A stretch of DNA of 64,000 bases. Origin: an uncultured Actinomycetota bacterium. Its GTDB lineage: Bacteria > Actinomycetota > Actinomycetes > Streptomycetales > Streptomycetaceae. Under the pieces are notes generated by a model. The model did not search any database. It saw nothing but the letters and a program-made list of their open reading frames with translations, and was not told where the DNA came from. Of this stretch, positions 9,377-30,321 are shown one piece after another. A program made the position numbers and the translations under genes. The first letter of the stretch is position 1; each line of letters opens with the position of its first letter. Location of the stretch: positions 385,773 to 449,772 of the forward strand of contig CAWGAU010000004.1 in the NCBI GenBank assembly GCA_963820715.1. Direction: 5' to 3'.

Positions 9377-11044
9377 GTGACCACCTCACCGCCCGCCGTC
9401 ACCGTGGGTGTCGACTTCGGGACGCTGTCCGGGCGCGCCGTCGTCGTCGCCGTGGCGGACGGCACCGAACTCGGCACCGCCGTCACCGACTACCGGCACG
9501 GCGTGGTGATCACGAACTCCCGGGCGACCGGCCGTGTGCCGCCGGACTGGGCGCTCCAGATCCCCGGCGACTGGCGCGAGGTGCTCACCGACGCGGTGCC
9601 CAGGGCGCTCGCGGCGGCCGGCGTACGGCCCCGGCCAGGTCCTCGGCATCGGCACCGACTTCACGTCCTGCACGGTGCTGCCGACCACCGCGGACGGAGT
9701 GCCGCTGTGCGAGCTGCCGCGAGTTCGCCGGACCGCCCGCACGCGTACCCCAAGCTGTGGCGGCACCACGCCGCGCAGCCCGAGGCCGACCTGATCGTGC
9801 GACCGGGCCGAGGAGTCCGGGCAGACCTGGCTGGCGGCCTACGGGGGCAAGGTCTCCAGCGAGTGGCAGCACCCCAAGGCGCTCCAGGTGCTCCGCGAGG
9901 ACCCGGAGGTCTACGCCGCCGCCGACCGCTGGATCGAGGCCGCCGACTGGATCGTGTGGCAGCTGACCGGCGCGGAGAACCGCACCCTGAGCACCGCCGG
10001 GTACAAGGGCCTGTACCAGCGGGGCAGCCACCCGGACGCCGGCCTTTCTCGGCTCCCTCCACCCGGACTTCGCCGGCTTCACCGCCAAGGTCGACCACCC
10101 GCTGTCCCGGCCCGGCACGCAGGCGGGCGTGCTGACCGCCGCGGGCGGCCGCGGCCACCGGGCTCCCGCAGGGGCTGCCCGTCGCCGTCGGCCACATCGA
10201 CGCGCACGTCACGGCCGCGGCGGCGCAGACCCTCGACCCCGGCCGGCTGCTGGCCATCATGGGCACCTCGACCTGCCTGATCGTCAACTCCGCGACCCAG
10301 GCGGACGTCCCCGGCATGTGCGGCGCCGTCCTCGACGGTGTCGTGCCCGGCCTGTGGGGATACGAGGCCGGGCAGAGCGGGGTCGGCGACATCTTCGCCT
10401 GGGCCGCCCGCACCGCCGTGCCCGAGGAGTACGCGCAGCGGGCCCGCGCCCGCGGCGTCGGCGTGCACGAACTCCTCACCGAGCTGGCCGCGGCCCAACC
10501 GGTGGGCGGGCACGGCCTGCTGGCCCTGGACTGGCACAGCGGCAACCGCTCCGTGCTGGTCGACCACCACCTGTCCGGCCTGCTCGTCGGCCTCACCCTC
10601 GACACCCGGCCCGAGGACATCTACCGCGCCCTGATCGAGGCCACCGCCTTCGGCACCCGCACGATCGTCGCCGCCTACGAGGACGCCGGGGTCGCCGTCA
10701 CCGAGGTCACGGCGGCGGGCGGCCTGCTGAAGAACCGCTTCCTGATGCAGACCTACAGCGACGTGCTGAACCGGCCGATCAACGTCATCGCCTCCGAGCA
10801 GGGGCCCGCCCTCGGCGCCGCCATCCACGCGGCCGTCGCCGCGGGCGCCCACCCGGACCTGCGCACCGCCTCGGCCGCGATGGGCCGCGTCCACCCCGCG
10901 GTGTACACGCCCGACCGGGCCCGGGCCGCCGCCTACGACGAGCTGTACGCCGAATACCAGGTCCTGCACGACCACTTCGGCCGCGGCGCCACCGATGTGA
11001 TGCACCGCCTGCGCGCCCTGCGCCGCCGCTCGACCGCGCGCTGA
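9377..11044 (+). CDS. araB: L-ribulokinase (FGGY family); frameshifted in the middle
   Basis: VTVGVDFGTLSGRAVVVAVADGTELG matches the AraB N-terminus. C-terminal segment: GTSTCLIV...LDWHSGNRSVLVDHHLSGLLVGLTLDTRPEDIYRALIEATAFGTRTIVAAYEDAGV...YSDVLNRPINVIASEQGPALGAAIHAAVAAG matches AraB. Confidence 0.85.
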
Positions 11045-11427
11045 GCCCCGCGCGGGCCGGCCCCCGCCCGCCGCCGGAGCGAGGGCCGGCCCGCGTCCGC
11101 CGCGGCCCTCCTCCGGCGGGTCCGGCCTGCTCATCGGCCCTGCGCTCGCCCCGCCGGTCCGCCCGTTCGCCGCCGTGCGTCCGCGCAACCGCCCCGCGCC
11201 GGCGCCCCGTTGATTGCCTGCTGCACGGGCCTTGTCAAAGCCGCGTCACGGCTCTTACGGTGTGGCCGCGAAAGAAAATGCTCGACTCTGTTTCATTACG
11301 TTGAATTGGCGTGCTGCGGGCCGTCGTCAGCCGGATCGATCGGCACAATTACGCACGCCTCATGGACCGACCTCGTCGCCGGTCCTGTTCTGTTCGGTTC
11401 TCCGACACCGCGAGCAGAGGAACCTCC

Positions 11428-14754: not shown

Positions 14755-15890
14755 ATGATCGGTCGGAGACTACGGGTAGTGGGGGTCGGCCTGACCCTGG
14801 CCGCCCTCGCCCAACTTCCGGTCGCCGCGGCCGTCCACGCCGCGGCCCCCGGCCCACGAGCGGCGGCCGGCCCGGCCCGGCCGCCGCCGCCGTCACCGCG
14901 CGCCGTCCCGCACACGACCGCCGCCGACACCTGCGCGATCAAGCCGCCGCCCCTCGGGCAAGGTGCTCCAGGGCTACTGGGAGAACTGGGACGGCGCCGC
15001 CAACGGCGTGCACCCGCGGCTCGGCTGGATCCCGATCACCGACAGCCGGATCGCCGCAGCACGGCTACAACGTCATCAACGCGGCCTTCCCGGTCATCCA
15101 GTCCGACGGCACCGTGCTGTGGCAGGACGGCATGGACACCGGCGTCAAGGTGGCCACGCCGGCCGAGATGTGCCAGGCCAAGGCGGCCGGCGCGACGATC
15201 CTGATGTCGATCGGCGGCGCGGCGGCCGGCATCGACCTCAGCTCCAGCGACCGTCGCCGACCGCTTCGTGGCGACCATCGTGCCGATCCTGAAGGCGTAC
15301 AACTTCGACGGCATCGACATCGACATCGAGACCGGCCTGATCGGCAGCGGCAGCATCAGCACGCTGTCCACCTCGCAGGCCAACCTGGAGCGCATCATCG
15401 ACGGCGTGCTGGCCCAGATGCCCGCCGAACTTCGGCCTGACCATGGCGCCCGAGACGGCGTACGTCACCGGCGGCAGCATCACCTACGGCTCGATCTGGG
15501 GCGCGTACCTGCCGATCGTCAAGAAGTACGCCGACAACGGCCGGCTGTGGTGGCTGAACATGCAGTACTACAACGGCAGCATGTACGGCTGCTCCGGCGA
15601 CTCGTACGAGGCGGGCACGGTGGCCGGGCTTCACCGCGCAGACCGACTGCCTCAACAAGGGCCTGGTCGTCCAGGGCACCACGATCAAGGTGCCGTACGA
15701 CAAGCAGGTGCCCGGCCTGCCGGCCCAGTCCGGGCGCGGGCGGCGGCTACATGACGCCGACCCTGGTCTCCCAGGCGTGGAACGCACTACGGCAGCGGCG
15801 CTCAAGGGCCTGATGACCTGGTCGCTCAACTGGGACGGCTCGAAGGGCTGGACCTTCGGCGACAACGTGAAGTCGCTGCAGGGCCGCTGA
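14755..15890 (+). CDS. secreted GH18 chitinase; frameshifted
   Basis: Signal peptide MIGRRLRVVGVGLTLAALAQLPVAAAVHA after RBS GGGAAGGGAG. GH18 motifs: GYWENWDG, NVINAAF, ILMSIGG, FDGIDIDIE (DxxDxDxE), WWLNMQYYN, LMTWSLNWD. Confidence 0.85.
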
Positions 15891-15924
15891 CACGGGGTGC
15901 CGTCCCCGTGCCGCCCGACGGGCG

Positions 15925-15981
15925 CCCGCCGACTGCCCTCGGCGGGCGCCTGCCGTGTTTCCCCGGACCGAACCGGGGAAA
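15925..15981. terminator. two consecutive GC-rich hairpins after the chitinase gene
   Basis: GGCGCCCGCCGactgccctCGGCGGGCGCC and TTTCCCCGGaccgaaCCGGGGAAA. Confidence 0.4.
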
Positions 15982-16118
15982 TGGGCGGGCGCCCGGGCGT
16001 CAGGTCCGCGCAAAGATCACGGCACCCGGTGCCAATAATCCGTATCCGACAGGCGCCTTGGCGCCCGTGAAGCCGCACCCTGGGAGTCCCGAACACCGTT
16101 CCGGCCCCAGGAGGGCGC

Positions 16119-17994
16119 ATGTCCGCAGCCGTCACCGAGCAGTCCCCGGCGCCGGAGGCCGCCGAACCTCCCGATACGGGCGCGGCCACCGACCGGCACC
16201 GGCTCACCGCGCTGCAGGGACTGGCCGCGCTCTCGCTGGACGCGATGGCGTCCGTGGCCTACGGGCCGGAGGCGATCGTCCTGGTGCTGGCCGCGGCCGG
16301 CGCGCACGGCCTCGGCTTCACCCTGCCGGTGACGCTGGCCATCGCCGCGCTGCTCGCCGTGCTCGTCGCCTCCTACCGGCAGGTGATCGCGGCGTTCCCG
16401 GACGGCGGCGGCTCCTACGCGGTCGCCAAGACGCCACCTCGGCCGCCGCACCAGCCTGGTGGCGGCGGCCTCGCTGATCCTGGACTACGTGCTCAACGTC
16501 GCGGTGTCCGTCACCGCCGGCGTGGCCGCGCTCACCTCGGCCTTCCCCGGGCTCTACGGCGACCGGGTGTGGCTGTGCCTGGCCGTGCTCGCCCTGGTCA
16601 CCGCGGTGAACCTGCGCGGCATCGTCGACTCCGCGCGCGGCCTTCATGTACCGACCGCCGTGTTCGTCGCGCTCGATCCTCGCGATCATCGTCGTCGGGC
16701 TCTTCCGCGTCCGCCCCCGCCGCCACGGCCGCCGCCGCACGGCCACGCCTCCGGTCGTCGCGGTCAACGCCACCGGCGTCGGCGCGCTGCTGCTGCTCAA
16801 GGCGTTCGCGTCCGGCTGCTCGGCGCTGACCGGCGTGGAGGCGGTGGCCAACGCGGTGCCGTCCTTCCGCGCCCCGCGCCGTGCGCCGGGCCCAGCGCAC
16901 CGAGGTCGCGCTCGGCGGCGCTGCTCGGCGTGATGCTGATCGGCCTGGCGGTGCTCATCGGCCGCTTCCACCTCCGGCCGGTGCGAGGGCGTCGACCGTC
17001 CTCGCCCAGCTCGCGGACGCCTCGCTCGGCCACAACTGGGCCTTCTACGTGGTGCAGTTCGCCACCGTGGTGCTGCTGGCGCCTGGCCGCCAACACCTCC
17101 TTCGGCGGGCTGCCGGTGCTGATGCGGCCTGCTGGCCCGCGACAACTACCTGCCGCACGTGTTCGCCCTCAAGGCCGACCGCCAGGTGCACCGCTACGGC
17201 GTGCTCACGCTCGCCGGCGATCTCCGCGGTGCTGCTGGTCGCCTCCGGCGGCGACACCAACACCCTCGTCCCGCTCTTCGCGATCGGCGTGTTCGTCGGC
17301 TTCACCATCTGCCAGATCGGCATGGTCCGGCACTGGCGCGCGCGAGCGGGTGCCGCGCTGGCGGCGCAAGGCCGCTGCTCAACGGCTTCGGCGCGGTGCT
17401 CACCGGCGTCGCGGCGGTCGTGGTGACCGGCGACGAAGTTCATGGAGGGCGCCTGGCTGATCGTCGTCGCGCTGCCGCTGCTGGTGGCTGGCCTTCGAGG
17501 GCGTGCACCGGGCGTACGGGCGGATCGGCGCAGCGCCTGGGCCTCGGCCGGATGCCCGGAGCCGCCGCACCGCGGACCGCTCGCTGGTCGTCGTGCCCGG
17601 TCGTCGACCCTGTCCCGGCTGACCAGCGAGGCGCTCACCGCCGCCGTCTCGCTCGGCGACGAGGTGCGCGCGGTGACCGTCACCCACCCCGAGGAGGACC
17701 GGCGGCGACCGAGGCGCTGCGCCGCGACTGGGAGCTGTGGCACCCGGGCGTGCCGCTGACCGAGCTGCCCTCCCCGCACCGCTCGCTCGGCCGGCCGCTC
17801 GACCGCGTACGTCCGCGCGCTCGCCGCCGAGCGACCCGGCACCCGGATCACCGTGCTCGATCGCCGAGGTCGAACCCGTGCACGTCTGGCAGCGGCTGCT
17901 GCAGAACCAGCGCGGCGCGGTCGTCGCCCACGCGGTACGCCGCGACACCGACGCCGTCGTGTGCCGGCTGCGGTTCCGCCTCAGGTCCCTGTGA
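16119..17994 (+). CDS. APC-superfamily permease with ~200-aa C-terminal cytoplasmic domain (KimA-like architecture; substrate unknown); several frameshifts
   Basis: RBS AGGAGG. TM core: ALSLDAMASVAYGPEAIVLVLAAAG...AVLVASYRQVIAAFPDGGGSYAVAKT and LVPLFAIGVFVGFTICQIGMVRHWRA. Soluble tail: ATEALRRDWELWHPGVPLTELPSPHRSLGRPL...VVCRLRFRLRSL. Confidence 0.75.
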
Positions 17995-18034
17995 GCCCTT
18001 TCCCGTGGGCCGCGCCGGGTACAGGCGTCAACGG

Positions 18035-18111
18035 CACGTCAAGAGGGCGACCGGCCGCGCCAGGAAAGCGTTAACGCGCTGGCCGCGAAACGGCCGGGTC
18101 GGCTTGCGTAG
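18035..18111 (+). promoter_or_regulatory. conserved leader blocks upstream of kdpD (A CACGTCAA; B CAGGAAAGCGTTAACGCG; C ACGGCCGGGTCGGCTTGCGTAGG)
   Basis: The same three blocks recur in the same order and orientation upstream of the kdpF operon (23566-23648). Confidence 0.4.
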
Positions 18112-18157
18112 GGAGTGATCACCACGGAACACCGGCTCGGCCCCTGGAGACACGTCC

Positions 18158-20716
18158 ATGTCCGACCTCACGGGCCGTCCCGACGGCGCCCGACCGCTGC
18201 GCCCCGGCCCCGGGCCGCCGCGGGCGCCTGAAGGTGTTCCTCGGCGCGGCCCCGGGCGTCGGCAAGACGTACCGGATGCTCGACGAGGGACGGCGCAGGG
18301 CGGAGCGCGGCACCGACGTGGTCGTGGCCTTCGTCGAGTGCCACAACCGGCCGCACACCCTCGCCCGGCTGGACGGCATGGAGATCGTGCCCCGGCTGGA
18401 ACGGGAGTACCGGGGCTCGTACTTCGGCGAGATGGACCTGGAGGCGGTGCTGCTCAGAAGCCCCCGAGGTCGCGCTCGTGGACGAGCTGGCCCACTCCAA
18501 CCCGCCCGGCGGCCGCAACGACAAGCGCTGGCAGGACGTCGAGACGCTGCTCGCCGCCGGCATCGACGTGGTCACCACCGTCAACATCCAGCACCTGGAG
18601 TCCGTCAACGACGTCGTCGAGAAGATCACCGAGGTCCCGCAGCGCGAGACCGTCCCCGACGAGGTGGTCCGCCGCGCCTTCCAGATCGAACTGGTCGACA
18701 TGCCCGCCGAGGCGCTGCGCCGCCGGATGGCGCACGGCAACGTCTACACCGCCGAGAAGGTGGACGCGGCGCTCGCCAACTACTTCCGGATCGGCAACCT
18801 GACCGCGCTGCGGGAGCTGGCGCTGCTGTGGGTGGCCGGGCGGGTCGACGAGGCGCTGCACAAGTACCGCACCGAGCACGGCATCGGCCGGGTGTGGGAG
18901 ACCAAGGAGCGGGTCGTCGTCGGCCTGACCGGCGGCGCCGAGGGCGACACGCTGATCCGCCGCGCGGCCCGCATCGCCGACCGCTCGGCGGGCGGCGACC
19001 TGCTCGCCGTGCACGTGGCGCGCAGCGACGGGCTGGCCGTCGGCGCCTCACCGGCCGCGCTCGCCCGGCAGCGGCAGCTCGTGGAGAGCCTCGGCGGCAG
19101 CTACCACTCGGTGGTCGGCGACGACGTGGCCTCCGCCCTGCTCGACTTCGCCCGCGCCAACAGCGCCACCCAACTGGTGCTGGGCACGAGCCGCCGCAGG
19201 CGGCTGGAGCGGCTGCTGACCGGACGCGGCATCGGCGAGACCACGGTCGGCAGCTCCGAGGACATCGACGTCCACATGGTCACCCACGAACGGGCCGGCG
19301 GCGGCCGGCTGCCGCCGTCGCGCCGCCGCACGCTGACCACCTGGCGGCTGATCGCCGGTCCTGTCGCCGGACTGGTGCTGCCGCTCGCGCTGACCGCCGT
19401 CCTCGCCCACAACCGCGGCAGCCTCAACCTCACCAGCGAGGCGCTGCTCTTCGTGCTCGCGATCGTCGGCGTGGCGTGCTTCGGCGGGGTGGTCTCCGCC
19501 GTCGTCGCGTCCGTGACCGCGTCCTTGCTGCTCAACTACTACTTCATCCCGCCGGTCGGCCAGTTCACCATCGCCGAGCCCAACAACATCCTGGCGCTCG
19601 CGGTGTTCGCGGTCGTCGCCGGCACGGTCGCGGCGGTCGTGGACCGCTCGCTGCGGCTGTCCCGGCGCGCGGCCCGGGCCACCGCCGAGGCCGAGACGCT
19701 CTCGTCGCTGGCCGGGAGCATCGTCCGCGGCGGCGACATCCTGCCCACCCTGCTGGAGCGCGCCCGCGAGACGTTCGGCATGGACAGCGCCGAACTCGCC
19801 CCCGCCCCCACGGGCGACGCCGCCGACGACGACTTCGCGGTACGGGTGCCGACCGGCGACGGCATGGTGCTCGAACTGCGCGGCCGCTCCCTGTCCGCCT
19901 CCGACCAGCGCGTCCTGGCGGCCTTCGCCGCCCACGTCTCCGCCGCCGCGGAACGGGCCAGGCTCGCCGAGGCCGCCGCCGAGATAGAGCCCGTCAAGGC
20001 CGCCGACCGGATGCGCACCGCCCTGCTCGCCGCCGTCAGCCACGACCTGCGCACGCCGCTGGCCGTCGGCTGGGCCGCCGTCAGTTCGCTGCGCAGCCAG
20101 GACGTGTCCTTCTCCGAGGAGGACCGCGAGGAACTGCTCGCCACCGCCGAGGAGTCGCTGGCCCGCCTCAGCCGGCTCGTCGACAACCTCCTCGACATGA
20201 GCAGGCTCCAGGCCGGCGCGCTCGCCCTGCAACTGCGGGCCACCACCCTGGACGAGGTGCTGCCCGCGGCCCTGGAGGCGCTGCCCTCCGACGCGCCCCC
20301 GGTCGACGCGGCCGGATCTGGAGGAGGCGCCCGCCGTACGCGCCGACCCGCCGCTGCTGGAGCGGGTCATCGCCAACCTGCTCAACAACGCGGTCCGGCA
20401 CGCCCCGCCCGGCCGGCCCGTCGTGCTGACCGCCAGCGCGCTGGGGGACCGGGTCGAACTGCGGGTGGTGGACCGCGGCCCCGGGCTGTCCGCGCAGGAC
20501 CGCGAGCGCGCCTTCGAGCCCTTCCAGCGGATGGGCGACAACGACAACAGCACGGGGCTCGGCCTCGGACTCGCCCTGGCCCGCGGGCTGACCGAGGCGA
20601 TGCACGGCACCCTCACGCCTGAGGACACCCCTGGAGGAGGACTGACCATGGTGCTGTCCCTGCCCGCCGCGGTGGACGCGCGGCCGCCCGAACTCTGCGA
20701 GGGGATCGGATCGTGA
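18158..20716 (+). CDS. kdpD: K+-sensing histidine kinase KdpD (KdpD N-domain + USP + TM + HisKA/HATPase); 3 frameshifts
   Basis: KVFLGAAPGVGKTYRMLDEGRRRAERGTDVVV, TVNIQHLESVNDVVEKIT, H-box AVSHDLRTPL, N-box IANLLNNAVRHA, G-box DRGPGL...GLGLGLAL. Confidence 0.9.
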
Positions 20717-21396
20717 CGTGCGTACTGGTCGTGGACGACGACTCCCCGATGCTGCGGGTGATCGGCGCGGGCCTGCGCTCGTACGCCTTCGCGGTGGTCA
20801 CCGCCTGCGACGCCGGCACGGCGCTGGACCTCGCGGCCAAGCGGCGGCCCGACGCGGTGCTGCTCGACCTCGGACTGCCCGACCTCGACGGCCTCGACGT
20901 GCTGCGCTCGCTGCGCGCCTGGACCAGCGTGCCCGTCCTCGTCGTCTCCGGCCGCACCGGCGTCTCCACCCGGGTCGCCGCGCTCGACGCGGGCGCCGAC
21001 GACTACCTCACCAAGCCCTTCGCCCTGGAGGAACTCGCCGCCCGGCTGCGGGCGGTGCTGCGCAGGCCCGCCCTGCTGGAGCCGCCGGAACGGGTGGAGG
21101 TCGGCCCGCTCACCGTGGACCTGGGCACCTACCGGGTCAGCCGTGCGGACCGGGAGGGCGCCGACATCCACCTCACGCCGACCGAGTGGCGGCTGCTGGC
21201 CGTCCTGCTGCGCAACCCCGAGCGGCTGGTCACCGGCCGGGAGCTGCTCACCGAGGTGTGGGGCCGCGAGTACGTCAAACGCACCAACTACCTGCGGATC
21301 TACATGGCCGGCCTGCGGCAGAAGCTGGAGCCCGACCCGTCAGCGCCCCGCCATCTGATCACCGAACCGGGGCTCGGATACCGCTTCCAGCCGTAG
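20713..21396 (+). CDS. kdpE: OmpR-family response regulator KdpE (intact), 4-bp overlap with kdpD
   Basis: [16 protein letters not shown]...[14 protein letters not shown]...[23 protein letters not shown]...[33 protein letters not shown]. Confidence 0.9.
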
Positions 21397-23372
21397 CCCG
21401 CGGCGCCCGCACACGCGCTCAGCCCGCGTGCACCCGCGGCCGCAGCGGCCCGGTCCGGCTCGGCCTCGCGCAGCACCTCGCGGGTGACCGGCGCGACCTC
21501 GCCCTGCCCGAAGAGGAAGAACCGCAGGAAGTTCGCGAACGGGTTGCCCTCGGTCCACTCGAAGTAGATGTGCGGGGTGCAGCCGGTGGTGTCGCGGACG
21601 TGCAGCAGCAGCGCGGCCAGCGCGTTGGGGATGGAGGAGCTCTCCACCGTCAGCACCCGGTAGCGGCCGTGCATCACCTGCCCGCGCACGGTCAGCGCCG
21701 TCTCGAACTCCGACGGGTCCAGCACGGTCACCTCGACGAAGACCAGGTCGTCCTCGGCCGGGATGTCGTTGTCGGTACGGATCTGCCGCACCTTGTCGCG
21801 GTACTCGGCCTCGTCGCGGCGGTCCGGCTCGTTGGCGATGAAGCGCACCTTGCGGCTGGCCACGTCGCGCACGAACCGCTCCGCCATGCCGTCCAGCCGC
21901 ACGTCGGTGACCCGCAGCTCGAAGGCGCGGGCGAGCCGGGACAGCAGGGACACCAGGATGATCCCGGCGATGAAGCAGGCGCCGATCTTCACACCGTCGG
22001 GCCGCTCGAGCGATGTTGACGACCGTGGTGTAGAGGAAGACCACCGCGATGACGCCGAAGCCGATCGCCCAGTTGCGCTGCCGGGCCCGGCGGGCGGAGA
22101 TCGTCACGGCGATGGCCGCGGAGCTCATCAGGACCAGCACACCGGTGGCGTAGGCGCCGCCCTGCTTGTCGACGTTCGCGTCGAAGATCCAGGTGACCAG
22201 GAAGGCCGACCAGGGTGAAGACCAGCACCATCGGGCGCACCGCCCGCGCCCAGTGCGGCGCCATGCCGTAGCGCGGCAGGTAGCGCGGCATCAGGTTGAG
22301 CAGCCCGGCCATCGCGGAGGCGCCGGCGAACCACAGGATGGCGATGGTGGAGAAGTCGTAGACCGTGCCGAAGGCCGAGCCGAGGTACTCGTGCGCGAGG
22401 AAGGCCAGCGCGCGCCCGTTGGCCGGGCCGCCGGTCTGGAAGTCCTGCTTCGGGATGAGCACGGTGGTGATGAAGCTGGTCGCGACGAGGAAGACGCTCA
22501 TGATCAGGGCGGCCGTCGTCAGCAGCTTCTTGGTGTCCCGGATCCGCCCGGCGGGGTTCTCCTCGGTGTCGCCCGGGTCGCCCTGCACGTGCGGCATCAC
22601 CGCGACGCCGGTCTCGAAGCCGGACATGCCCAGCGCCAGCTTCGGGAAGATCACCAGGGACACGCCGATCATCACGAAGACGTTGCCGCGCTCGGCGGTC
22701 AGCGCCGTGCGACCAGTCGGTGACCAGGTGCGGGGCGGACGACCACCTGCCAGAGGCCGTCCACGACCACCACGACGTTCAGCGCCAGGTAGATCGCCGA
22801 CCAGCACCACCGCGACGCCGATGGCCTCCAGGAAGCCCTTGAGGAAGACCGCGCCGAGCAGCGCGACCAGCAGCAGCGTGATCAGCATCTGGTGGCCGTG
22901 CCAGAGCGCTGGCGAAGTGCGGGTTCTCGGTCAGGTGGGTGGAGGCGTCGGCCGCGGACAGGGTGATCGTGATCAGGAAGTCGGTCGCCGCGAAGCCCAG
23001 CAGCGTCAGGACGAAGAGCTTGCCCTTCCAGAAGGACAGCAGCCGCTCCAGCATCGCGATCGAGCCCTCGCCGCGCGGGCTCTCCTCCGCCACCCGCCGG
23101 TAGACCGGCAGCGCCCCGGCCAGCGTCACGATCACCAGCACGACCGTCGCGATCGGGGAGAGCAGTCCGGCGGCCAGGGCCGCGATGCCCGGCTGGTAGC
23201 CGAGGGTGGAGAAGTAGTCGACGCCGGTCAGGCACATCACCCGCCACCAGCGCTGCCCGCGGTGCGCGGGCTCGGCCGGCTTCACCGCCTGTCCCGGCCG
23301 CGGCCGGCCCATGTCCGACAGGCCCTCCAGCAGCCATGCCCGCAGGCGGTTGGTCGGGGCCTCGGCGGTCAC
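21300..23372 (-). CDS. second APC-superfamily permease with C-terminal cytoplasmic domain (paralogous architecture to 16119-17994); frameshifted; 3' end uncertain
   Basis: Start GTG at 23372 after RBS AGGAG ([22 protein letters not shown]...). TM segments: [53 protein letters not shown]. Soluble tail: [42 protein letters not shown]. Confidence 0.7.
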
Positions 23373-23565
23373 ACGTCTGCTCCTGTCCGTGCGGCGGTCT
23401 CTCCGTCCGCGGCGGCGCGCGCTCCGTACCGGCGGCAGGCCGTACGGGCACCCCCGGCAGGGCGGAATCCGGCCATCGCGGCGACGGCGAGGCAAGCGTA
23501 CGCAACCGGCCCGCGACCGGTCGGGGCAGGGGCGCCGCGACACGCGGCCATGTCCGCATCAAGAC

Positions 23566-23648
23566 CACGTCAAAGCCGCCGGTGGCCGCGTCAGGAAGGC
23601 GCTAACACGGACGGCGGTACGGGCACGGCCGGGTTTGTCTTGGTGAGG
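23566..23648 (+). promoter_or_regulatory. conserved leader blocks upstream of the kdpF operon (A CACGTCAA; B CAGGAAGGCGCTAACACG; C ACGGCCGGGTTTGTCTTGGTGAGG)
   Basis: Same blocks as the kdpD leader. Confidence 0.4.
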
Positions 23649-23732
23649 CCGACCTGTGAAGCGTCGGCGCCGGCCGCCCGACCGAGGGCGGGCGGCTTCG
23701 ATCTCCTCTGACCGTCCGGGGTGTGCCTTCCC

Positions 23733-23816
23733 ATGCCAGACCTAGTTTTCGTCGCCGTCACCGTCGTCGTGTTCGCCGTCATCGGCCTGGTGGCCAAGGG
23801 GGTGGAGCGGCTGTGA
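23733..23816 (+). CDS. 27-aa single-TM peptide MPDLVFVAVTVVVFAVIGLVAKGVERL, stop overlapping kdpF start (ctGTGAgc)
   Basis: Found by manual reading; too short for the ORF track. It is hydrophobic. The GTGA start/stop overlap with kdpF suggests translational coupling. No clear Shine-Dalgarno sequence. Confidence 0.35.
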   Translation: MPDLVFVAVTVVVFAVIGLVAKGVERL

Positions 23817-23902
23817 GCGCTGAAAACGTCGTCGGACTCGTCGTTGCCGTGGCCCTGGTCGGATACCTGGTGCTGGCACTGATCCACCCGGAGAAGTTCT
23901 AG
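23813..23902 (+). CDS. kdpF: KdpF subunit (29 aa) VSAENVVGLVVAVALVGYLVLALIHPEKF
   Basis: Matches mycobacterial and actinomycete KdpF (...VGL.IA.AL..YL..AL..PEKF). Its stop overlaps the kdpA GTG start. Confidence 0.7.
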   Translation: MSAENVVGLVVAVALVGYLVLALIHPEKF

Positions 23903-25568
23903 TGAACGACACCCTCGCGGGCTGGCTCCAGATCATCGCCCTGCTGGGCGTGCTGGCGCTGTCCTACCGGCCGCTGGGCGACTACATGGCCCACGTCCTG
24001 ACCTCCCCCAAACACTGGAGCGTCGAGCGCTTCCTCTACCGGCTCGGCGGGGTGGACGGCGAAGCCGACCAGCGCTGGCCGGTCTACCTGCGCAGCGTCC
24101 TCGCCTTCTCCGCCGTGTCCGTGCTCTTCCTCTACGCCTTCCAGCGGCTCCAGAGCCACCTGCTGCTGTCCGTCGGCATGAAGGCGGTGCCGCCGAACAC
24201 GGCGTTCAACACCGCGACTTCCTTCGTCACCAACACCAACTGGCAGTCGTACTCGGGTGAGTCCACGATGGGCCACCTGGTGCAGATGGCCGGGCTCGCG
24301 GTGCAGAACTTCGTGTCGGCCGCCGTCGGCATCGCGGTCGTCGCCGCCCTGATCCGCGGCTTCACCCGCAGGCGCACCGACCGCGTCGGCAACTTCTGGG
24401 TGGACCTCACCCGGATCGTGCTGCGCGTCCTGCTGCCCATGGCCTTCGTCTTCGCGATCATCCTGGTCGCGGGCGGCGCCGTGCAGAACTTCCACGGTGT
24501 GCAGTCGCTCTCCACGATCGCCGGCGACCACCAGAGCCTCACCGGCGGGCCGGTCGCCTCGCAGGAGGCGATCAAGGAACTCGGCACCAACGGCGGCGGC
24601 TTCTACAACGCCAACTCCGCGCACCCCTTCGAGAACCCCAACGCGTTCACCAACATCCTCGAGATCTACATGCTGCTGGTGATCTCCGTCTGCCTGCCGC
24701 GCACCTTCGGCAAGATGGTCGGCGACAAGCGCCAGGGCTACGCGATCCTCGCGGTGATGGGCCTGATCTGGGCCGCGTCGGTGGCGGCCATCACCGTCAG
24801 CGAACTGCACAGCTTCCACAGCGCGGCGGGCCACGCGGCCGGCGGCATGATGGAGGGCAAGGAACAGCGGTTCGGGATCTGGGGTTCGGCGCTGTTCGCC
24901 GTCGTCCACCACGCTGACCTCGACGCGGCGCCGTCAACTCCTTCCACGACTCGTTCTCGCCGCTCGGCGGCGGAACGACGATCTTCAACATGATGCTGGG
25001 CGAGATCGCGCCCGGCGGCACCGGCTCCGGGCTGTACGGCATCCTCATCCTGGCGATCATCACGGTCTTCGTGGCCGGTCTGATGGTCGGCCGCACCCCG
25101 GAGTACCTGGGCAAGAAGCTCGGCGGCCGGGAGATGAAGTTCGCCTCGCTCTACATCCTCACCACCCCGGCGATCGTGCTGGTCGGCGCGGGCGTGGCGA
25201 TGGCGCTGCCAGGTGAGCGGGCGAACATGCTCAACACCGGTGCGCACGGCTTCTCCGAGGTGCTGTACGCCTTCACCTCGGCCGCGAACAACAACGGTTC
25301 CGCGTTCGCCGGTATCACGGTGACCTCCAACTGGTGGAACACGGCGCTGGGCCTGGCGATGCTGCTGGGCCGCTTCCTGCCGATGGTGTTCGTGCTGGCC
25401 CTGGCCGGTTCGCTCGGCAGACAGCAGCCGGTACCCGCCACCGCGGGCACCCTGCCCACCCACCGGCCGCAGTTCGTCGGCCTGCTGACCGCGGTGGTCA
25501 TCATCGTCGTCGGTCTCACGTACTTCCCCGCGCTCGCGCTGGGTCCGCTCGCGGAAGGTCTCCACTGA
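23902..25568 (+). CDS. kdpA: K+-transporting ATPase subunit A; frameshift ~24900-24990
   Basis: [33 protein letters not shown]...[11 protein letters not shown]...[19 protein letters not shown], then second frame ...[29 protein letters not shown]... Confidence 0.9.
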
Positions 25569-27711
25569 TGTCGTCCCTGACCACCCTCGAACCCCCCGTC
25601 ACGCCGGGGGACTCCCCGGAGCCGCCCGAGCGGCACCGGATCTCCGGCGGCATGCTCGACCCGAAGCAGCTCCTCACGTCGCTTCCGGACGCGTGCCGGA
25701 AGCTCGACCCCCGGACGATGGTCAAGAACCCGGTCATGTTCGTGGTCGAGGTCGGCTCGGTGCTGACCACGCTGTCCGCGATCAAGGACCCGAGCGTCTT
25801 CGCCTGGGTGATCACCGCCTGGCTCTGGCTCACCGCGATCTTCGCCAACCTCTCCGAGGCCGTCGCCGAAGGACGCGGCAAGGCCCAGGCCGAGACGCTG
25901 CGCAAGACCAAGACCGACACCCTCGCCCGGCGGCTCGCCGACTGGCGGCCCGGCGACACGCACTCCCGCGAGGAGTCGGTGCCCGCCGCCGAACTGCGGC
26001 TGGCCGACCACGTGGTGGTCGAGGCCGGGCAGGTCATCCCCGGTGACGGCGACGTCGTCGAAGGCGTCGCCTCGGTGGACGAGTCGGCGATCACCGGCGA
26101 GTCGGCCCCCGTCATCCGCGAGTCCGGCGGCGACCGCAGCGCGGTGACCGGCGGCACGAAGGTGCTCTCGGACCGGATCGTCGTGAAGATCACCTCGAAG
26201 CCGGGCGAGACGCTTCATCGACCGGATGATCGCGCTGGTCGAGGGCGCGTCGCCGGCAGAAGACGCCGAACGAGATCGCGCTGAACATCCTGCTGGCGTC
26301 GATGACCATCATCTTCCTGCTGGCCGTCGTGACGCTCCAGCCGTTCGCGATCTACGCGGGCGCCGAGCAGACCATCGTGGTCCTGGTCGCGCTGATGGTC
26401 GCGCTGATACCGACCACGATCGGCGCCCTGCTGTCCGCCATCGGCATCGCGGGCATGGACCGGCTGGTGCAGCGCAACGTCCTGGCCATGTCCGGACGCG
26501 CCGTCGAAGCGGCGGGCGACGTCAACACCCTCCTGCTCGACAAGACCGGCACCATCACCCTCGGCAACCGCCAGGCCGCCGAGTTCCTGACCGCGGACGG
26601 CATCTCCATCGAGGAGTTGGCGGACGCCGCCCAACTGTCGTCGCTCGCCGACGAGACCCCCGAAGGCCGCTCCATCGTGGTGCTCGCCAAGGAGCGCTAC
26701 GGCCTGCGCGGCCGTCCCGAAGGCACCCTGGGGAACGCCGAGTTCGTCCCCTTCACCGCGCAGACCAGGATGAGCGGCGTCGACCTCGTCGAGGACGGCG
26801 ACCACCGCAGCCTGCGCAAGGGCGCCGCCACCGCCGTCATGCAGTGGATACGCGAGAACGGCGGCCACCCCACCGAGGAGGTGGGCCCGATGGTCGACGC
26901 CATCGCGGCCGCCGGCGGCACCCCGCTGGTCGTCGGCGAGGTCGTCCGCCGCGACGGGGACACCACCGCCACCGTGCTCGGCGTGATCAACCTCAAGGAC
27001 GTCGTCAAGGCCGGCATGCGCGACCGGTTCGACGAGCTGCGCCGGATGGGCATCCGCACCGTGATGATCACCGGCGACAACCCGATGACCGCCAAGGCCA
27101 TCGCGGACGAGGCGGGCGTGGACGACTTCCTCGCCGAGGCCACGCCCGAGGACAAGATGGCCCTCATCAAACGCGAGCAGGAGGGCGGGAAGCTGGTCGC
27201 GATGACCGGCGACGGCACCAACGACGCGCCCGCGCTGGCCCAGGCGGACGTCGGCGTGGCCATGAACACCGGCACCTCGGCCGCCAAGGAGGCCGGGAAC
27301 ATGGTGGACCTGGACTCCAACCCCACCAAGCTCATCGAGATCGTGGAGATCGGCAAGCAACTCCTCATCACCCGAGGGGCGCTGACCACCTTCTCCATCG
27401 CCAACGACGTCGCCAAGTACTTCGCGATCATCCCCGCGATGTTCGCCGGCGTCTACCCGGGCCTGCACCACCTCAACATCATGGGTCTGCACAGCCCGAC
27501 CTCGGCCATCACCTCCGCGATCGTCTTCAACGCGCTGATCATCGTCGCGCTGATCCCGCTCGCCCTGCGCGGTGTGCGCTACAAGCCGTCCTCGGCCTCG
27601 GCGCTGCTCAGCCGCAACATCTGGGTGTACGGCCTGGGCGGACTGGTGCTGCCGTTCGTCGGCATCAAACTCATCGACCTCGTCGTGCAGTTCGTCCCCG
27701 GTCTGAACTGA
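25567..27711 (+). CDS. kdpB: K+-transporting P-type ATPase subunit B; two single-base insertions (~26213, ~26253)
   Basis: [47 protein letters not shown]. The conserved [25 protein letters not shown] is recovered only by deleting the C at ~26213 and the C at ~26253. Confidence 0.9.
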
Positions 27712-27727
27712 GAAAGGTCACGTCATC

Positions 27728-28334
27728 GTGCGCAACTACCTGGCGGCCCTGCGAATGCTGCTGATCCTCACCGTCGTGACCGGCGTGGCCTATCCGCTGC
27801 TGGTCACCGGCGTCGCCCAGGCGGCGTTCTCCCACCAGGCCGACGGTTCACCGGTCAAGAAGAACGGCACCACCGTGGGCTCCAGCCTGATCGGCCAGAA
27901 CTTCGACCTGCCGAAGAAGAACCCCGCCGACGCCGACGAGGCGGCCAGGCCCGACCCCGGGTTCTTCCAGCCCCGCCCGTCCGCCGGCGACTACGACCCG
28001 CTCGCCAGCGGTGCGTCCAACCTGGGGCCCAACGACCCCACGCTGGTCAAGACCGTCAAGGAGCGCCGCGCCGCGGTCGCCGCCTTCGACGGGGTCGACC
28101 CGAAGGACGTGCCCGCCGACGCGGTCACCGCCTCCGGCTCCGGCCTCGACCCGGACATCTCCAAGGCGTACGCGGCCGAGCAGGTCGACCGCGTCGCCAA
28201 GGTCCGCGGGCTGAGCGCCGCGACCGTCCGCGGCCCTGGTCTCCGACAACACGCACAGCCGCTCGCTGGGCTTCCTCGGCGAGCCGTACGTGAACGTCGT
28301 CGACCTCAACCTGGCGCTGTCCAGGCTCAAGTGA
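27728..28334 (+). CDS. kdpC: K+-transporting ATPase subunit C; frameshift ~28230
   Basis: MRNYLAALRMLLILTVVTGVAYPLLVTGVAQAAF...ASGASNLGP...SGSGLDPDIS. C-terminus in another frame: ...NTHSRSLGFLGEPYVNVVDLNLALSRLK. Confidence 0.85.
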
Positions 28335-28427
28335 CGACGTTCACATGACCGACCGGCCCGTACCGCCGGCGGTGCGGGCTCCCCCCTGCGCCGCCGGCGG
28401 ACCGGGCCGCGGAAAGGGAGGGCCGGC

Positions 28428-29108
28428 ATGAGCCGAGTGCTCGTCGTCGACGACGAACCGCAGATCGTCCGGGCGCTGGTGATCAACCTGCGCGCCCGGC
28501 GGTACGAGGTCGACGCCGCCCACGACGGGGTCACCGCCCTGCGGATGGCCGCCGACCGGCACCCGGACGTCGTCCTGCTCGACCTCGGCCTGCCCGACAT
28601 GGACGGCGTCGACGTCATCACCGGGCTGCGCGGCTGGACCCGGGTGCCGATCATCGTCCTGTCCGCCCGCCACGCCTCCGACGAGAAGGTCCAGGCGCTC
28701 GACGCGGGCGCCGACGACTACGTCACCAAGCCGTTCGCCATGGACGAACTCCTGGCCCGGATGCGCGCCGCCGTCCGCCGCGCCGACGCGGGCCCCGACC
28801 CCGAGACCTCCACCCTGGAGACCGCGTCCTTCACCGTCGACCTGGCCGCCAAGAAGGTCAACAAGGACGGCACGGACGTCCGCCTCACCCCCACCGAGTG
28901 GCACCTGCTGGAGGTCCTCACCCGTAACGCGGGCCGCCTGATCAGCCAGAAGCAGCTGCTCCAGGACGTGTGGGGCCCCGGCTACGGCACCGAGACCAAC
29001 TACCTGCGGGTGTACATGGCGCAGCTTCGCCGCAAGCTCGAAGCCGACCCCACCCGGCCGCGGCACTTCATCACCGAGCCGGGCATGGGCTACCGGTTCG
29101 AGCCGTGA
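28428..29108 (+). CDS. kdpE: second KdpE-type response regulator (intact), no kinase gene follows it
   Basis: RBS GGAAAGGGAGG. MSRVLVVDDEPQIVRALVINLRARRYEV...NYLRVYMAQLRRKLEADPTRPRHFITEPGMGYRFEP. This is closer to canonical KdpE than the copy at 20713. Confidence 0.9.
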   Translation: MSRVLVVDDEPQIVRALVINLRARRYEVDAAHDGVTALRMAADRHPDVVLLDLGLPDMDGVDVITGLRGWTRVPIIVLSARHASDEKVQALDAGADDYVTKPFAMDELLARMRAAVRRADAGPDPETSTLETASFTVDLAAKKVNKDGTDVRLTPTEWHLLEVLTRNAGRLISQKQLLQDVWGPGYGTETNYLRVYMAQLRRKLEADPTRPRHFITEPGMGYRFEP

Positions 29109-29171: not shown

Positions 29172-29792
29172 TCAGGCGGCCGTCTCCAGGGTGAGCAGCA
29201 CGCGCTTGGCGTCCTCGCCGCCCGCGTAGCGGCCCATCGTGCCGTCGGAGCGGATCACCCGGTGGCAGGGGACGACGACGGGCAGCGGGTTGGTCGCGCA
29301 GGCCGTGCCGACGGCGCGGACCGCGCGGGGGCTGCCGGCGGCGGCGGCCACCTGCGCGTAGCTCTCGGTGCGGCCGTAGCCGATCTCCGGGAGGTGGGCC
29401 AGGACGTCGCGGCGGAAGCCCGTGGACAGCCGCCAGTCCAGCGGCAGTTCGAAGGTCCTGCGGCGCCCGGCGAAGTACTCGTCGAGCTGGCGGCCGGTCT
29501 CGTCCAGCCGGCCGGGCGCGTGCAGCACCCGCGGGCTGACCCGGTCGGCGAGCTGCTGGAGCACGGCGCTGTGGTCCTGCACCGCGAAGGCGACCTTGAC
29601 CAGGCCCTCGTCGGTGGCGGCCAGCAGCAGCGTGCCCACGGGCGTGTCGAGGGTGCGGTAGGCGACGTCGAGCAGGCCCTCGCGCGCGGCGCGCGCCGCC
29701 AGCCGCCCGTGCAGGCGGTCATCGTGGCGGCGTCGTCCTCGGGCAGGCCCGCGAACAGGCGCCCGCTGTCGGGTTCTCCGGATGGCGTTCAT
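29172..29792 (-). CDS. ogt: methylated-DNA-protein-cysteine methyltransferase (MGMT/Ogt), copy 1
   Basis: Internal RBS GGGAGGGAGAGG then ATG (MNAIRRT...). YRTLDTPVGTLLLAATDEGLVKVAF...ESYAQVAAAAGSPRAVRAVGTACATNPLPVVVPCHRVIRSDGTMGRYAGG (PCHR active site). Confidence 0.75.
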   Translation of the reverse strand: MNAIRRTRQRAPVRGPARGRRRHDDRLHGRLAARAAREGLLDVAYRTLDTPVGTLLLAATDEGLVKVAFAVQDHSAVLQQLADRVSPRVLHAPGRLDETGRQLDEYFAGRRRTFELPLDWRLSTGFRRDVLAHLPEIGYGRTESYAQVAAAAGSPRAVRAVGTACATNPLPVVVPCHRVIRSDGTMGRYAGGEDAKRVLLTLETAA

Positions 29793-30321
29793 GGTCGTCC
29801 TCTCCCTCCCGTCCGGCCGCTGCCGGACTCCGCGGCCACCGGTCCGGCGGCCGAGCGGGTAGGTCCGGCGCAGCGTCTTCATGCCGTCGGCCGCGGCCCG
29901 GCGGGCCGCGTCGGTGCTGCCGCCCGTGACGGCGGCGATGTCCTTGTAGGGGAGCCCGGCCAGGTAGTGGTAGGCCACCGCCTGGCGCTGCCGCTCCGGC
30001 AGTTCCTTCAGCGCCCGCCACAGGTCGGGGTCCCAGTCCTCGGGGCGGCCGGTGCGCGAGACCCGCTCCGGCAGTTCGCCGACCGGTGTGGCCCGGCGGG
30101 AGTTGCCGCGGGTCACGTCGATCGCCTTGCGGTGCGCGACCGTCACCAGCCACGCCTCGACGTTGGCGTCCGCCGGGCAGCTCCGGATACGCCCGCAGCG
30201 CCGCGAGGAACGTCTCCGACCAGGCGTCCTCCGCGTCGTGCGGCCCCAGCACGGCCCGTACGACGCGCAGCACCATCGGCCCGTGGTCGGTCACGATCTG
30301 TTCGAACGGCGGCTTGCTCAC
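29793..30321 (-). CDS. ECF (sigma-70 family) sigma factor; frameshift ~30150-30190; reads in frame into ogt with no stop codon
   Basis: Region 2: MSKPPFEQIVTDHGPMVLRVVRAVLGPHDAEDAWSETFLAALRAYPELP. Region 4 in second frame: WRALKELPERQRQAVAYHYLAGLPYKDIAAVTGGSTDAARRAAADGMKTLRRTY. Confidence 0.7.

Follow-up and report, generated by a model that had tools for sequence, protein, structure and literature searches.

The 64-kb stretch of DNA analysed here (the window) comes from a high-GC actinomycete near Actinacidiphila and carries a potassium-transport locus in which a short non-coding module, the subject of this study, stands upstream of the sensor kinase gene kdpD and again upstream of the kdpF operon. 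On the forward strand, the locus includes a gene for a KimA-type K+ importer of the APC superfamily (16119–17994), which is frameshifted and has an intact Kitasatospora orthologue (L019:2691–4517, 82% identical over the N-terminus) that matches KimA (PDB 6s3k) over its full length with E = 6e-119 and also matches Pfam AA_permease_2. This gene is followed by kdpD (18158–20716), which contains three assembly frameshifts and whose three-frame translation is 87–90% identical to the KdpD proteins of A. yanglinensis (locus L001), A. guanduensis (L074) and a soil metagenome-assembled genome (MAG, L002). The adjoining response regulator gene kdpE (20713–21396) encodes a product with the Pfam domains Response_reg and Trans_reg_C, whose top NCBIfam match is KdpE at a score under that model's cut-off. 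Further downstream, kdpF (VSAENVVGLVVAVALVGYLVLALIHPEKF, 23813–23902) leads into kdpA (from 23902), kdpB and kdpC (27728–28348). Directly 3′ of kdpC lies a second KdpE-type response regulator gene, kdpE2 (28428–29108), identified by its Pfam matches, by its best PDB match, E. coli KdpE (4kny, E = 1e-65), and by KdpE as its top NCBIfam match. Orthologues of kdpE2, 81–94% identical, stand directly after kdpC in L001 and L002, and KdpE and KdpE2 share the recognition-helix sequence NYLR(V/I)YMA.LR.KLE. A cognate KdpD/KdpE system, consisting of kdpD, kdpE and kdpE2, is thus present in the locus. The assembly is rich in frameshifts that indicate indel errors, with kdpD, the permease gene and kdpA/B each switching frame several times. 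These repeated frame changes (16119–17994, 18158–20716 and 23902–27700) are typical of an unpolished long-read assembly rather than of pseudogenes, because close relatives carry intact genes.

In a sequence-only reading of this DNA, three ordered blocks, termed A, B and C, were proposed to recur upstream of kdpD and of the kdpF operon, and all three were found where they had been placed in both copies. The shared ordered blocks extend over 18025–18113 upstream of kdpD and over 23556–23643 upstream of kdpF. A local alignment of 18000–18160 with 23480–23737 reached a score of 34, compared with a mean of 20.2 and a maximum of 33 for dinucleotide-shuffled sequences, so that 0 of 1000 shuffles attained it, and a global alignment of the two copies from the first repeat to the start codon gave z = 5.9. 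The similarity is not an assembly artefact, both copies being present also in L001, L074 and L002.

The internal organization of the module was resolved by comparison with orthologous loci. A total of 80 KdpD loci were fetched from Streptomycetaceae genomes, kdpA, kdpC, kdpD, kdpE and the permease gene were located in each, and a matrix for an 11-bp unit was trained on 62 orthologous kdpF upstream regions with the window left out. The unit consensus is GCGTCAaGGcC, with nearly all of the information in CGTCA, and the distances between units in these 62 regions peak at 11 (48), 21 (52), 32 (60) and 43 (40) bp, with almost none in between. Blocks A and B, together with one unit upstream of A that had not been listed, resolve to four 11-bp direct-repeat units with the core CGTCAA, arranged as two adjacent pairs separated by a 10-bp spacer, which places the four cores on one face of the helix. 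The kdpD array (18025–18078, forward strand) has unit starts at 18025, 18036, 18057 and 18068 and reads GCGTCAACGGC ACGTCAAGAGG, spacer GCGACCGGCC, GCGCCAGGAAA GCGTTAACGCG. The kdpF array (23556–23609, forward strand) has unit starts at 23556, 23567, 23588 and 23599 and reads GCATCAAGACC ACGTCAAAGCC, spacer GCCGGTGGCC, GCGTCAGGAAG GCGCTAACACG. When both strands of the window were scanned for unit pairs, the first kdpF pair ranked best at 20.9 bits and the first kdpD pair third at 18.4 bits, whereas the maximum in shuffled windows averaged 11 bits. As complete arrays, the kdpD and kdpF copies score 24.6 and 26.4, respectively. The two window copies also have some spacer bases, such as GGCCGCG, in common.

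A degenerate four-unit array was also found in front of the KimA-type permease gene (15997–16050, forward strand; GCGTCAGGTCC GCGCAAAGATC, spacer ACGGCACCCG, GTGCCAATAAT CCGTATCCGAC), with units scoring 4.6, 0.4, 0.3 and −2.8 bits. It lies 122 nt before the ATG, the same position at which orthologous permease genes at 33 loci carry strong arrays of 15–40 bits, and it may either have decayed or have been distorted by the error-prone assembly. The MAG L002 lacks the 5′ half of the permease gene and is therefore of no use for checking this promoter. The sequence-only reading had missed this array and had instead linked kdpD to the permease gene by a likeness of the last 35 nt before the two start codons. 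This likeness is real, but only marginally beyond chance: it comprises 23 nt with 20 identical positions (18127–18149 versus 16091–16113), reached locally by 19 of 1000 shuffles and globally by 7 of 1000 (z = 3.4). The array at 15997–16050 is thus a stronger link between the module and the permease gene than the leader similarity is. Another proposed component, a copy in the kdpF leader of the kdpD start region (GACACG..CCATGTCCG; 23540–23556 versus 18150–18164), does exist, but it is not collinear with the module and is missing from the closest relative, L002. CCATGTCCG occurs four times in the window against 0.82 expected. This copy was set aside as chance or lineage noise.

The four-unit layout extends well beyond the window, which supports the earlier proposal of a common cis-regulatory element of K+ genes. 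It was found in three genera (Actinacidiphila, Kitasatospora and Streptomyces) before three gene classes, i.e., kdpF, the KimA-type permease gene and stand-alone kdpD, at a fixed distance from each gene. Of 64 regions examined upstream of kdpF, most contain the array, located at a fixed distance from kdpA, and in Kitasatospora one or two additional units bring the number up to six. The permease upstream sequences, which gave the 15–40 bits at 33 loci, were not part of the matrix training set. The window, L001, L002, L074 and L003 carry the full array in front of kdpD, and several Streptomyces kdpD genes have a single GTCAGnnnnGCGTCAAyGT pair. The gene order differs among these genomes, being kdpFABC-kdpDE in Kitasatospora versus kdpD upstream of kdpFABC in the window, L001, L002 and L074. 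Where kdpD directly follows kdpC, including in Kitasatospora, the array before kdpD is absent, whereas kdpD genes detached from kdpC have either the array or the single pair. A scan of 3.3 Mb of locus sequence, a sample centred on kdp loci, gave 160 arrays of at least 20 bits, of which 92 lie directly before kdpF, the permease gene or kdpD, and most of the others represent one conserved site directly after kdpE in Kitasatospora. A second KimA paralogue of Kitasatospora is preceded by three inverted units, TCTTGACGATG TCTTAACGGCC CCCTTAACG, in which the CGTCAAG core appears as its reverse complement (e.g., L066:~2600–2640). Block-B-like matches near position 9500 in about 25 Kitasatospora loci were considered as an element of the kdpC–kdpD junction and rejected as coincidental, since they are 3′ coding sequence of kdpC (..LGFLGQxGVNVVL..).

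Block C follows the array in both copies and is inferred from its sequence to be the core-promoter region of a putative promoter. In the kdpD copy (18090–18122, forward strand), ACGGCCGGGTCGGCTTGCG is followed by TAGGGA, a candidate −10 element, and by the palindrome GTGATCAC. This block aligns with block C of the kdpF copy and with the GCGTAGCGTCAGTGCTGAC box after the equivalent post-kdpE array of Kitasatospora, its terminal TAGGGA being aligned with a TAGCGT box there. The kdpF copy of block C (ACGGCCGGGTTTGTCTTGG, 23625–23643, forward strand) is the counterpart of a conserved Kitasatospora box, GGCTGGTT(T/G)GCT, which stands at a fixed distance from the last unit and is separated by about 7 variable nt from a downstream hairpin; it is the likely promoter-proximal (−10-like) element. 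Given how rich in indels the assembly is, short non-coding indels are possible as well, for example in the spacing from the last unit to the −10-like box, 33 nt versus 29 nt. No canonical sigma-70 (HrdB-type) promoter of the form TTGACA-N16–18-TATAAT was found in 15900–18200 or 23300–23800, which fits a promoter dependent on an activator or on an alternative sigma factor. The earlier suggestion of an alternative-sigma promoter may apply, as a candidate, to block C only. The SigF/SigB-type pattern GTTT-N-GGGTA, proposed for M. smegmatis, was not found by eye.

The kdpD leader segment GAACACCGGCTCGGCCCCTGGAG (18127–18149, forward strand) and the permease leader segment GAACACCGTTCCGGCCCCAGGAG (16091–16113, forward strand) resemble each other, each with a ribosome-binding site at its end, and the wider leaders (18109–18149 and 16080–16113, respectively) have GGGAGT, GAACACCG and CGGCCCC(A/T)GGAG in common. 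In both, a short stem of the type (U/C)UC(C/G)..GGAG could form over the ribosome-binding site. The kdpF start lies about 90–100 nt after block C, comparable to the 120-nt 5′ untranslated region (5′ UTR) in M. smegmatis (PMC5401905). Two GC-rich hairpins, GCCGAC..GTCGGC and GGCCGCCCG..CGGGCGGC, were predicted with RNAfold in the presumed kdpF 5′ UTR (23648–23696, forward strand). Their positions recur in other genera with different sequences (GCCGAC/GTCGGC, CCGACC/GGTCGG and GCCGGC/GCCGGC; for the second stem, GCCGCG/CGCGGC versus GCCGTG/CACGGC). The stability of this 5′ UTR is only modestly beyond that of shuffled sequences (mean minimum free energy z = −0.72), and its RNAalifold consensus is weak.

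Response regulators of the OmpR/PhoB family, to which the array points, characteristically bind direct repeats spaced by one helical turn. The half-sites of the module are direct repeats about 11 bp apart, they lie upstream of the putative kdpFABC promoter and are conserved there, and they agree in sequence with an experimentally defined KdpE site of a related organism. That site is the 22-bp CCGTAAAGAAACCATCAAGGCC of the M. smegmatis kdpFABC promoter, which was identified by DNase footprinting and electrophoretic mobility shift assay by Ali et al. in 2017 (PMC5401905). Scored as a pair with the Streptomycetaceae matrix, it reaches 18.8 bits, compared with 18.4 and 20.9 bits for the window sites. 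A KdpE operator had been one of three mechanisms offered for the module, and it is the one that fits, blocks A and B being 11-bp-phased direct repeats that match the actinobacterial site. With a probability of about 80%, the module is thus a predicted KdpE operator array with an activator-dependent promoter, functioning as DNA rather than RNA. Operators of this kind are known from E. coli and M. smegmatis and have not previously been described for Streptomycetaceae.

If KdpE is indeed the binder, K+ limitation would lead KdpD to phosphorylate a KdpE-type regulator, either KdpE (20713) or KdpE2 (28428) or both. Bound to the array as two head-to-tail dimers along the same DNA face, the regulator would then bring RNA polymerase to the weak promoter, with transcription starting at presumed sites. 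At the kdpF copy, this activation would switch on kdpF-kdpABC-kdpE2 as the classical Kdp response. At the kdpD copy, it would switch on kdpDE, a positive autoregulation that is elsewhere supplied by read-through from kdpFABC. The degenerate third copy stands in front of the KimA-type importer gene. Autoregulation of kdpD is supported by the operator occurring before kdpD only where the gene is detached from kdpC.

However, several points weigh against this assignment. Units three and four score poorly in places (−0.6 in kdpD, −4.3 in kdpF), and the window's permease copy, whose array as a whole scores 2.5, is very weak. Because the orthologues are related by phylogeny, counting conserved sites exaggerates the amount of independent evidence. 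No published KdpE sites and no measurements of binding, expression or transcription starts were found for kdp promoters of Streptomycetaceae. Binding of KdpE to the kdpD promoter was not seen in M. smegmatis (PMC5401905), leaving autoregulation through a dedicated site without precedent there. The second-best pair in the window (TTGTCAAAGCCGCGTCACGGCT, 11232–11253, forward strand, 19.7 bits) stands before an unrelated alpha-galactosidase gene, showing that single pairs are not fully specific. In addition, other actinomycete OmpR-family regulators recognize similar GTnAC-like direct repeats, which makes cross-recognition possible.

The last two points also bear on the alternative that the array is bound by another OmpR/PhoB-family regulator (e.g., an MtrA-, AfsQ1-, GlnR- or PhoP-like protein) that replaces or competes with KdpE. 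Direct repeats spaced by 11 bp are generic for this family, and the strong pair at 11232 precedes a gene unrelated to K+. This alternative is nevertheless unlikely, given the near-identical match to the footprinted M. smegmatis site, the KdpE-type genes that are always adjacent and the concentration of high-scoring four-unit arrays in kdp loci, which were, however, the only loci sampled. It is still less probable that the two copies are a neutral relic, i.e., sequence without function left by a segmental duplication or rearrangement that split kdpDE from kdpFABC. The kdp locus has clearly been rearranged between Kitasatospora and the window, L001, L002 and L074, the two window copies share spacer bases, and the kdpD control region looks like a mosaic, with its array and block C resembling the kdpF copy and its last ~35 nt resembling the permease leader. 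This mosaic appearance suggests that the kdpD control region was assembled by copying during rearrangement, so that duplication is a likely origin of the module and not a rival to its function. Against mere inheritance, the architecture is kept before kdpF, kdpD and KimA-type genes in three genera while spacers and flanks diverge freely, which implies selection on the cores. A duplication is compatible with the operator assignment and may even have been the route by which the operator came to kdpD.

The sequence-only reading had also raised the possibility of a structured 5′ leader, such as a cyclic di-AMP (c-di-AMP) riboswitch of the ydaO class or another riboswitch, which would control kdpD, kdpF and the KimA-type gene after transcription initiation. 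Such riboswitches control kimA and kdp genes in Firmicutes (PMC10117811). Real hairpins are present downstream of the module in the kdpF leader, and the small stem could cover GGAG in the kdpD and permease leaders. However, an Rfam covariance search found no relevant family, neither RF00379 nor another cis-regulatory one, at E ≤ 10 over 15500–24500 and none at gathering score over the whole window. RNAalifold applied to 11 copies of the module (7 kdpF, 4 kdpD) gave −1.0 kcal/mol with 3 pairs and 0 compensatory changes across the orthologues. The conserved columns are the 11-bp-phased repeat cores rather than paired columns, and the inverted units before the second Kitasatospora permease gene suit a protein-binding DNA site rather than an RNA motif. 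Furthermore, blocks A and B both precede block C, the sole conserved box that resembles a promoter, and the known Streptomyces ydaO elements precede cell-wall hydrolase genes rather than K+ genes (PMC10117811). The riboswitch is thus largely refuted and is the least credible of the alternatives.

Other features of the locus accompany the predicted KdpE operators. A 27-codon open reading frame (ORF) for a small, hydrophobic membrane peptide (MPDLVFVAVTVVVFAVIGLVAKGVERL; 23733–23816, forward strand) precedes kdpF, its stop overlapping the kdpF start (GTGA). The ORF is conserved among the inspected kdpF loci, with a Kitasatospora version, MSDLIYVGVTVAVFAVIALIARGVEKL, and its product may be an extra small subunit or a leader peptide of the Kdp operon. 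On the reverse strand, a divergent, frameshifted gene (21300–23372) encodes a polytopic membrane protein of about 650 residues and has its intergenic region in common with kdpF. Three apparent ORFs between kdpE and kdpF are this one gene, an intact copy of which is found at L002:12302–14254. This L002 orthologue has no sequence match in Pfam or PDB; compared with the KimA-type permease, it shows 23% identity over 436 residues (E = 3e-6), a sequence similarity that marks the product as a distant KimA/APC relative. It may be a candidate for an uncharacterized K+-related transporter. In L008, a gene of this type is divergent from another kdpD-like gene, with a repeat pair in between. The two-component genes are unusually split in the window, L001 and L002, with kdpE2 after kdpC and kdpD upstream of kdpF. 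Between the kdpF operator and kdpD of L001, nothing resembling kdpE was detected, whereas the window has an extra kdpE beside kdpD. Directly downstream of kdpE2, the reverse-strand gene at 29172–30146 combines sigma-70 region 4 with two O6-methylguanine-DNA methyltransferase domains, an uncommon fusion. The intergenic stretch containing the TTGTCAAAGCCGCGTCACGGCT pair, about 200 nt upstream of the GH27 alpha-galactosidase-like gene (start ~11429), is unusually rich in A and T. The pair is also present in L002, a relative too close to be informative, and could be a chance match, a further regulon member or the site of another regulator.

Two RNA-like elements were observed in Kitasatospora. One of them lies upstream of the permease operator (L019:2455–2560 and 21 other Kitasatospora loci) and comprises a TTGCAA-N17-CAGAGT promoter-like box and the arrangement GGGGGTGGG..(35-nt invariant core GCTGATCGTCTTCCCAACCGGCGCCCGCCGGGAC)..CCCACCCCC. 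Its outer helix apparently covaries, and it includes a variable insertion. The element matches no Rfam family, is neither a tRNA nor a transfer-messenger RNA and is absent from the window; it is a candidate for an unclassified leader or small RNA on the border of the K+ locus. The other follows kdpE (L012:13024–13230 and about 35 other Kitasatospora loci) and combines a full four-unit array and the TAGCGT −10 box with a conserved leader of ~90–125 nt. This leader contains a long covarying hairpin with a CUCC..GGAG apex, a GCCGCCG hairpin and GGGGAGGGG, a ribosome-binding site or terminator, and it ends either in a terminator without a gene or before a membrane protein of ~530 residues and a second kdpD. 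It may be a KdpE-driven cis-regulatory RNA or a small RNA. An assignment to the ydaO riboswitch was rejected, no Rfam match being obtained at E ≤ 10. The notion that the window kdpD leader is a truncated remnant of it was likewise dropped, because R1, a covariance model of the Kitasatospora leader, finds nothing at 18100–18160. The best R1 hit in the window (E = 0.58) falls in coding sequence, and none was obtained in 20 Actinacidiphila and Streptomyces loci, which confines R1 to Kitasatospora.

A broader and considerably more doubtful proposal is that the Streptomycetaceae KdpE controls a small K+-uptake regulon that comprises, besides its own kinase gene, the Kdp pump and KimA-type K+/H+ symporters and possibly also the divergent distant-KimA protein, through a portable two-dimer cassette of ~54 bp that was copied between promoters. 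Copying of this cassette during locus rearrangement may have kept autoregulation after kdpDE and kdpFABC were split. A second, post-transcriptional layer is possible, involving the GGAG stem of the kdpD and permease leaders, the hairpins of the kdpF 5′ UTR and the structured Kitasatospora leader behind the cassette.

According to PMC10117811, neither KdpDE nor K+ uptake has been studied in Streptomyces and its relatives. For these organisms, the present analysis supplies an operator model with the consensus GCGTCAaGGcC, two phased pairs and exact coordinates, and a predicted regulon of kdpFABC, stand-alone kdpD and KimA-type importers. It also supplies an evolutionary rule, in which an operator dedicated to kdpD occurs only where this gene has lost its place behind kdpC, and it removes a tempting but unsupported riboswitch annotation. 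The finding is of use in the annotation of K+ regulation in Streptomycetaceae, and it should be only a mild surprise to specialists, because such elements are familiar from E. coli and M. smegmatis.

Among known systems, the c-di-AMP riboswitch of the ydaO/kimA class (RF00379) resembles the module in that some Gram-positive bacteria have it before genes for K+ uptake (kimA, kdp), but it is an RNA with a large pseudo-symmetric fold, for which the window has no match and the module no conserved pairing. The PHO boxes of Streptomyces PhoP consist of variable numbers of 11-nt direct repeat units and can overlap or replace the −35 region. They are thus similar to the module in being operators of 11-nt repeat units and differ from it in their GTTCACC-type core, their regulator and their regulon. 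The E. coli KdpE operator, TTTATA-N5-TTTACA, consists of two direct repeats, each 6 bp long, that are separated by 5 bp (Narayanan et al. 2012, PMC3264566). It is likewise a direct-repeat operator, and KdpE2 of the window is a clear homologue of its regulator; however, this operator is AT-rich, unrelated in sequence and limited to a single pair. The closest parallel was reported in M. smegmatis, where kdpFABC has a non-canonical promoter, a 120-nt 5′ UTR and a kdpFABCDE read-through transcript (PMC5401905). The half-sites there are CGTAAA and CATCAA, 11 bp apart, versus CGTCAA here, and both sites lie upstream of kdpF; in M. smegmatis the site is followed by the non-canonical promoter and the long 5′ UTR, and KdpE is a positive regulator. 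In contrast to the single 22-bp pair of M. smegmatis, the module has two pairs, and up to six units are found before Kitasatospora kdpF. Finally, whereas kdpDE is read through from kdpFABC in M. smegmatis, the separated kdpDE has its own copy of the predicted operator here, as do the KimA-type genes.

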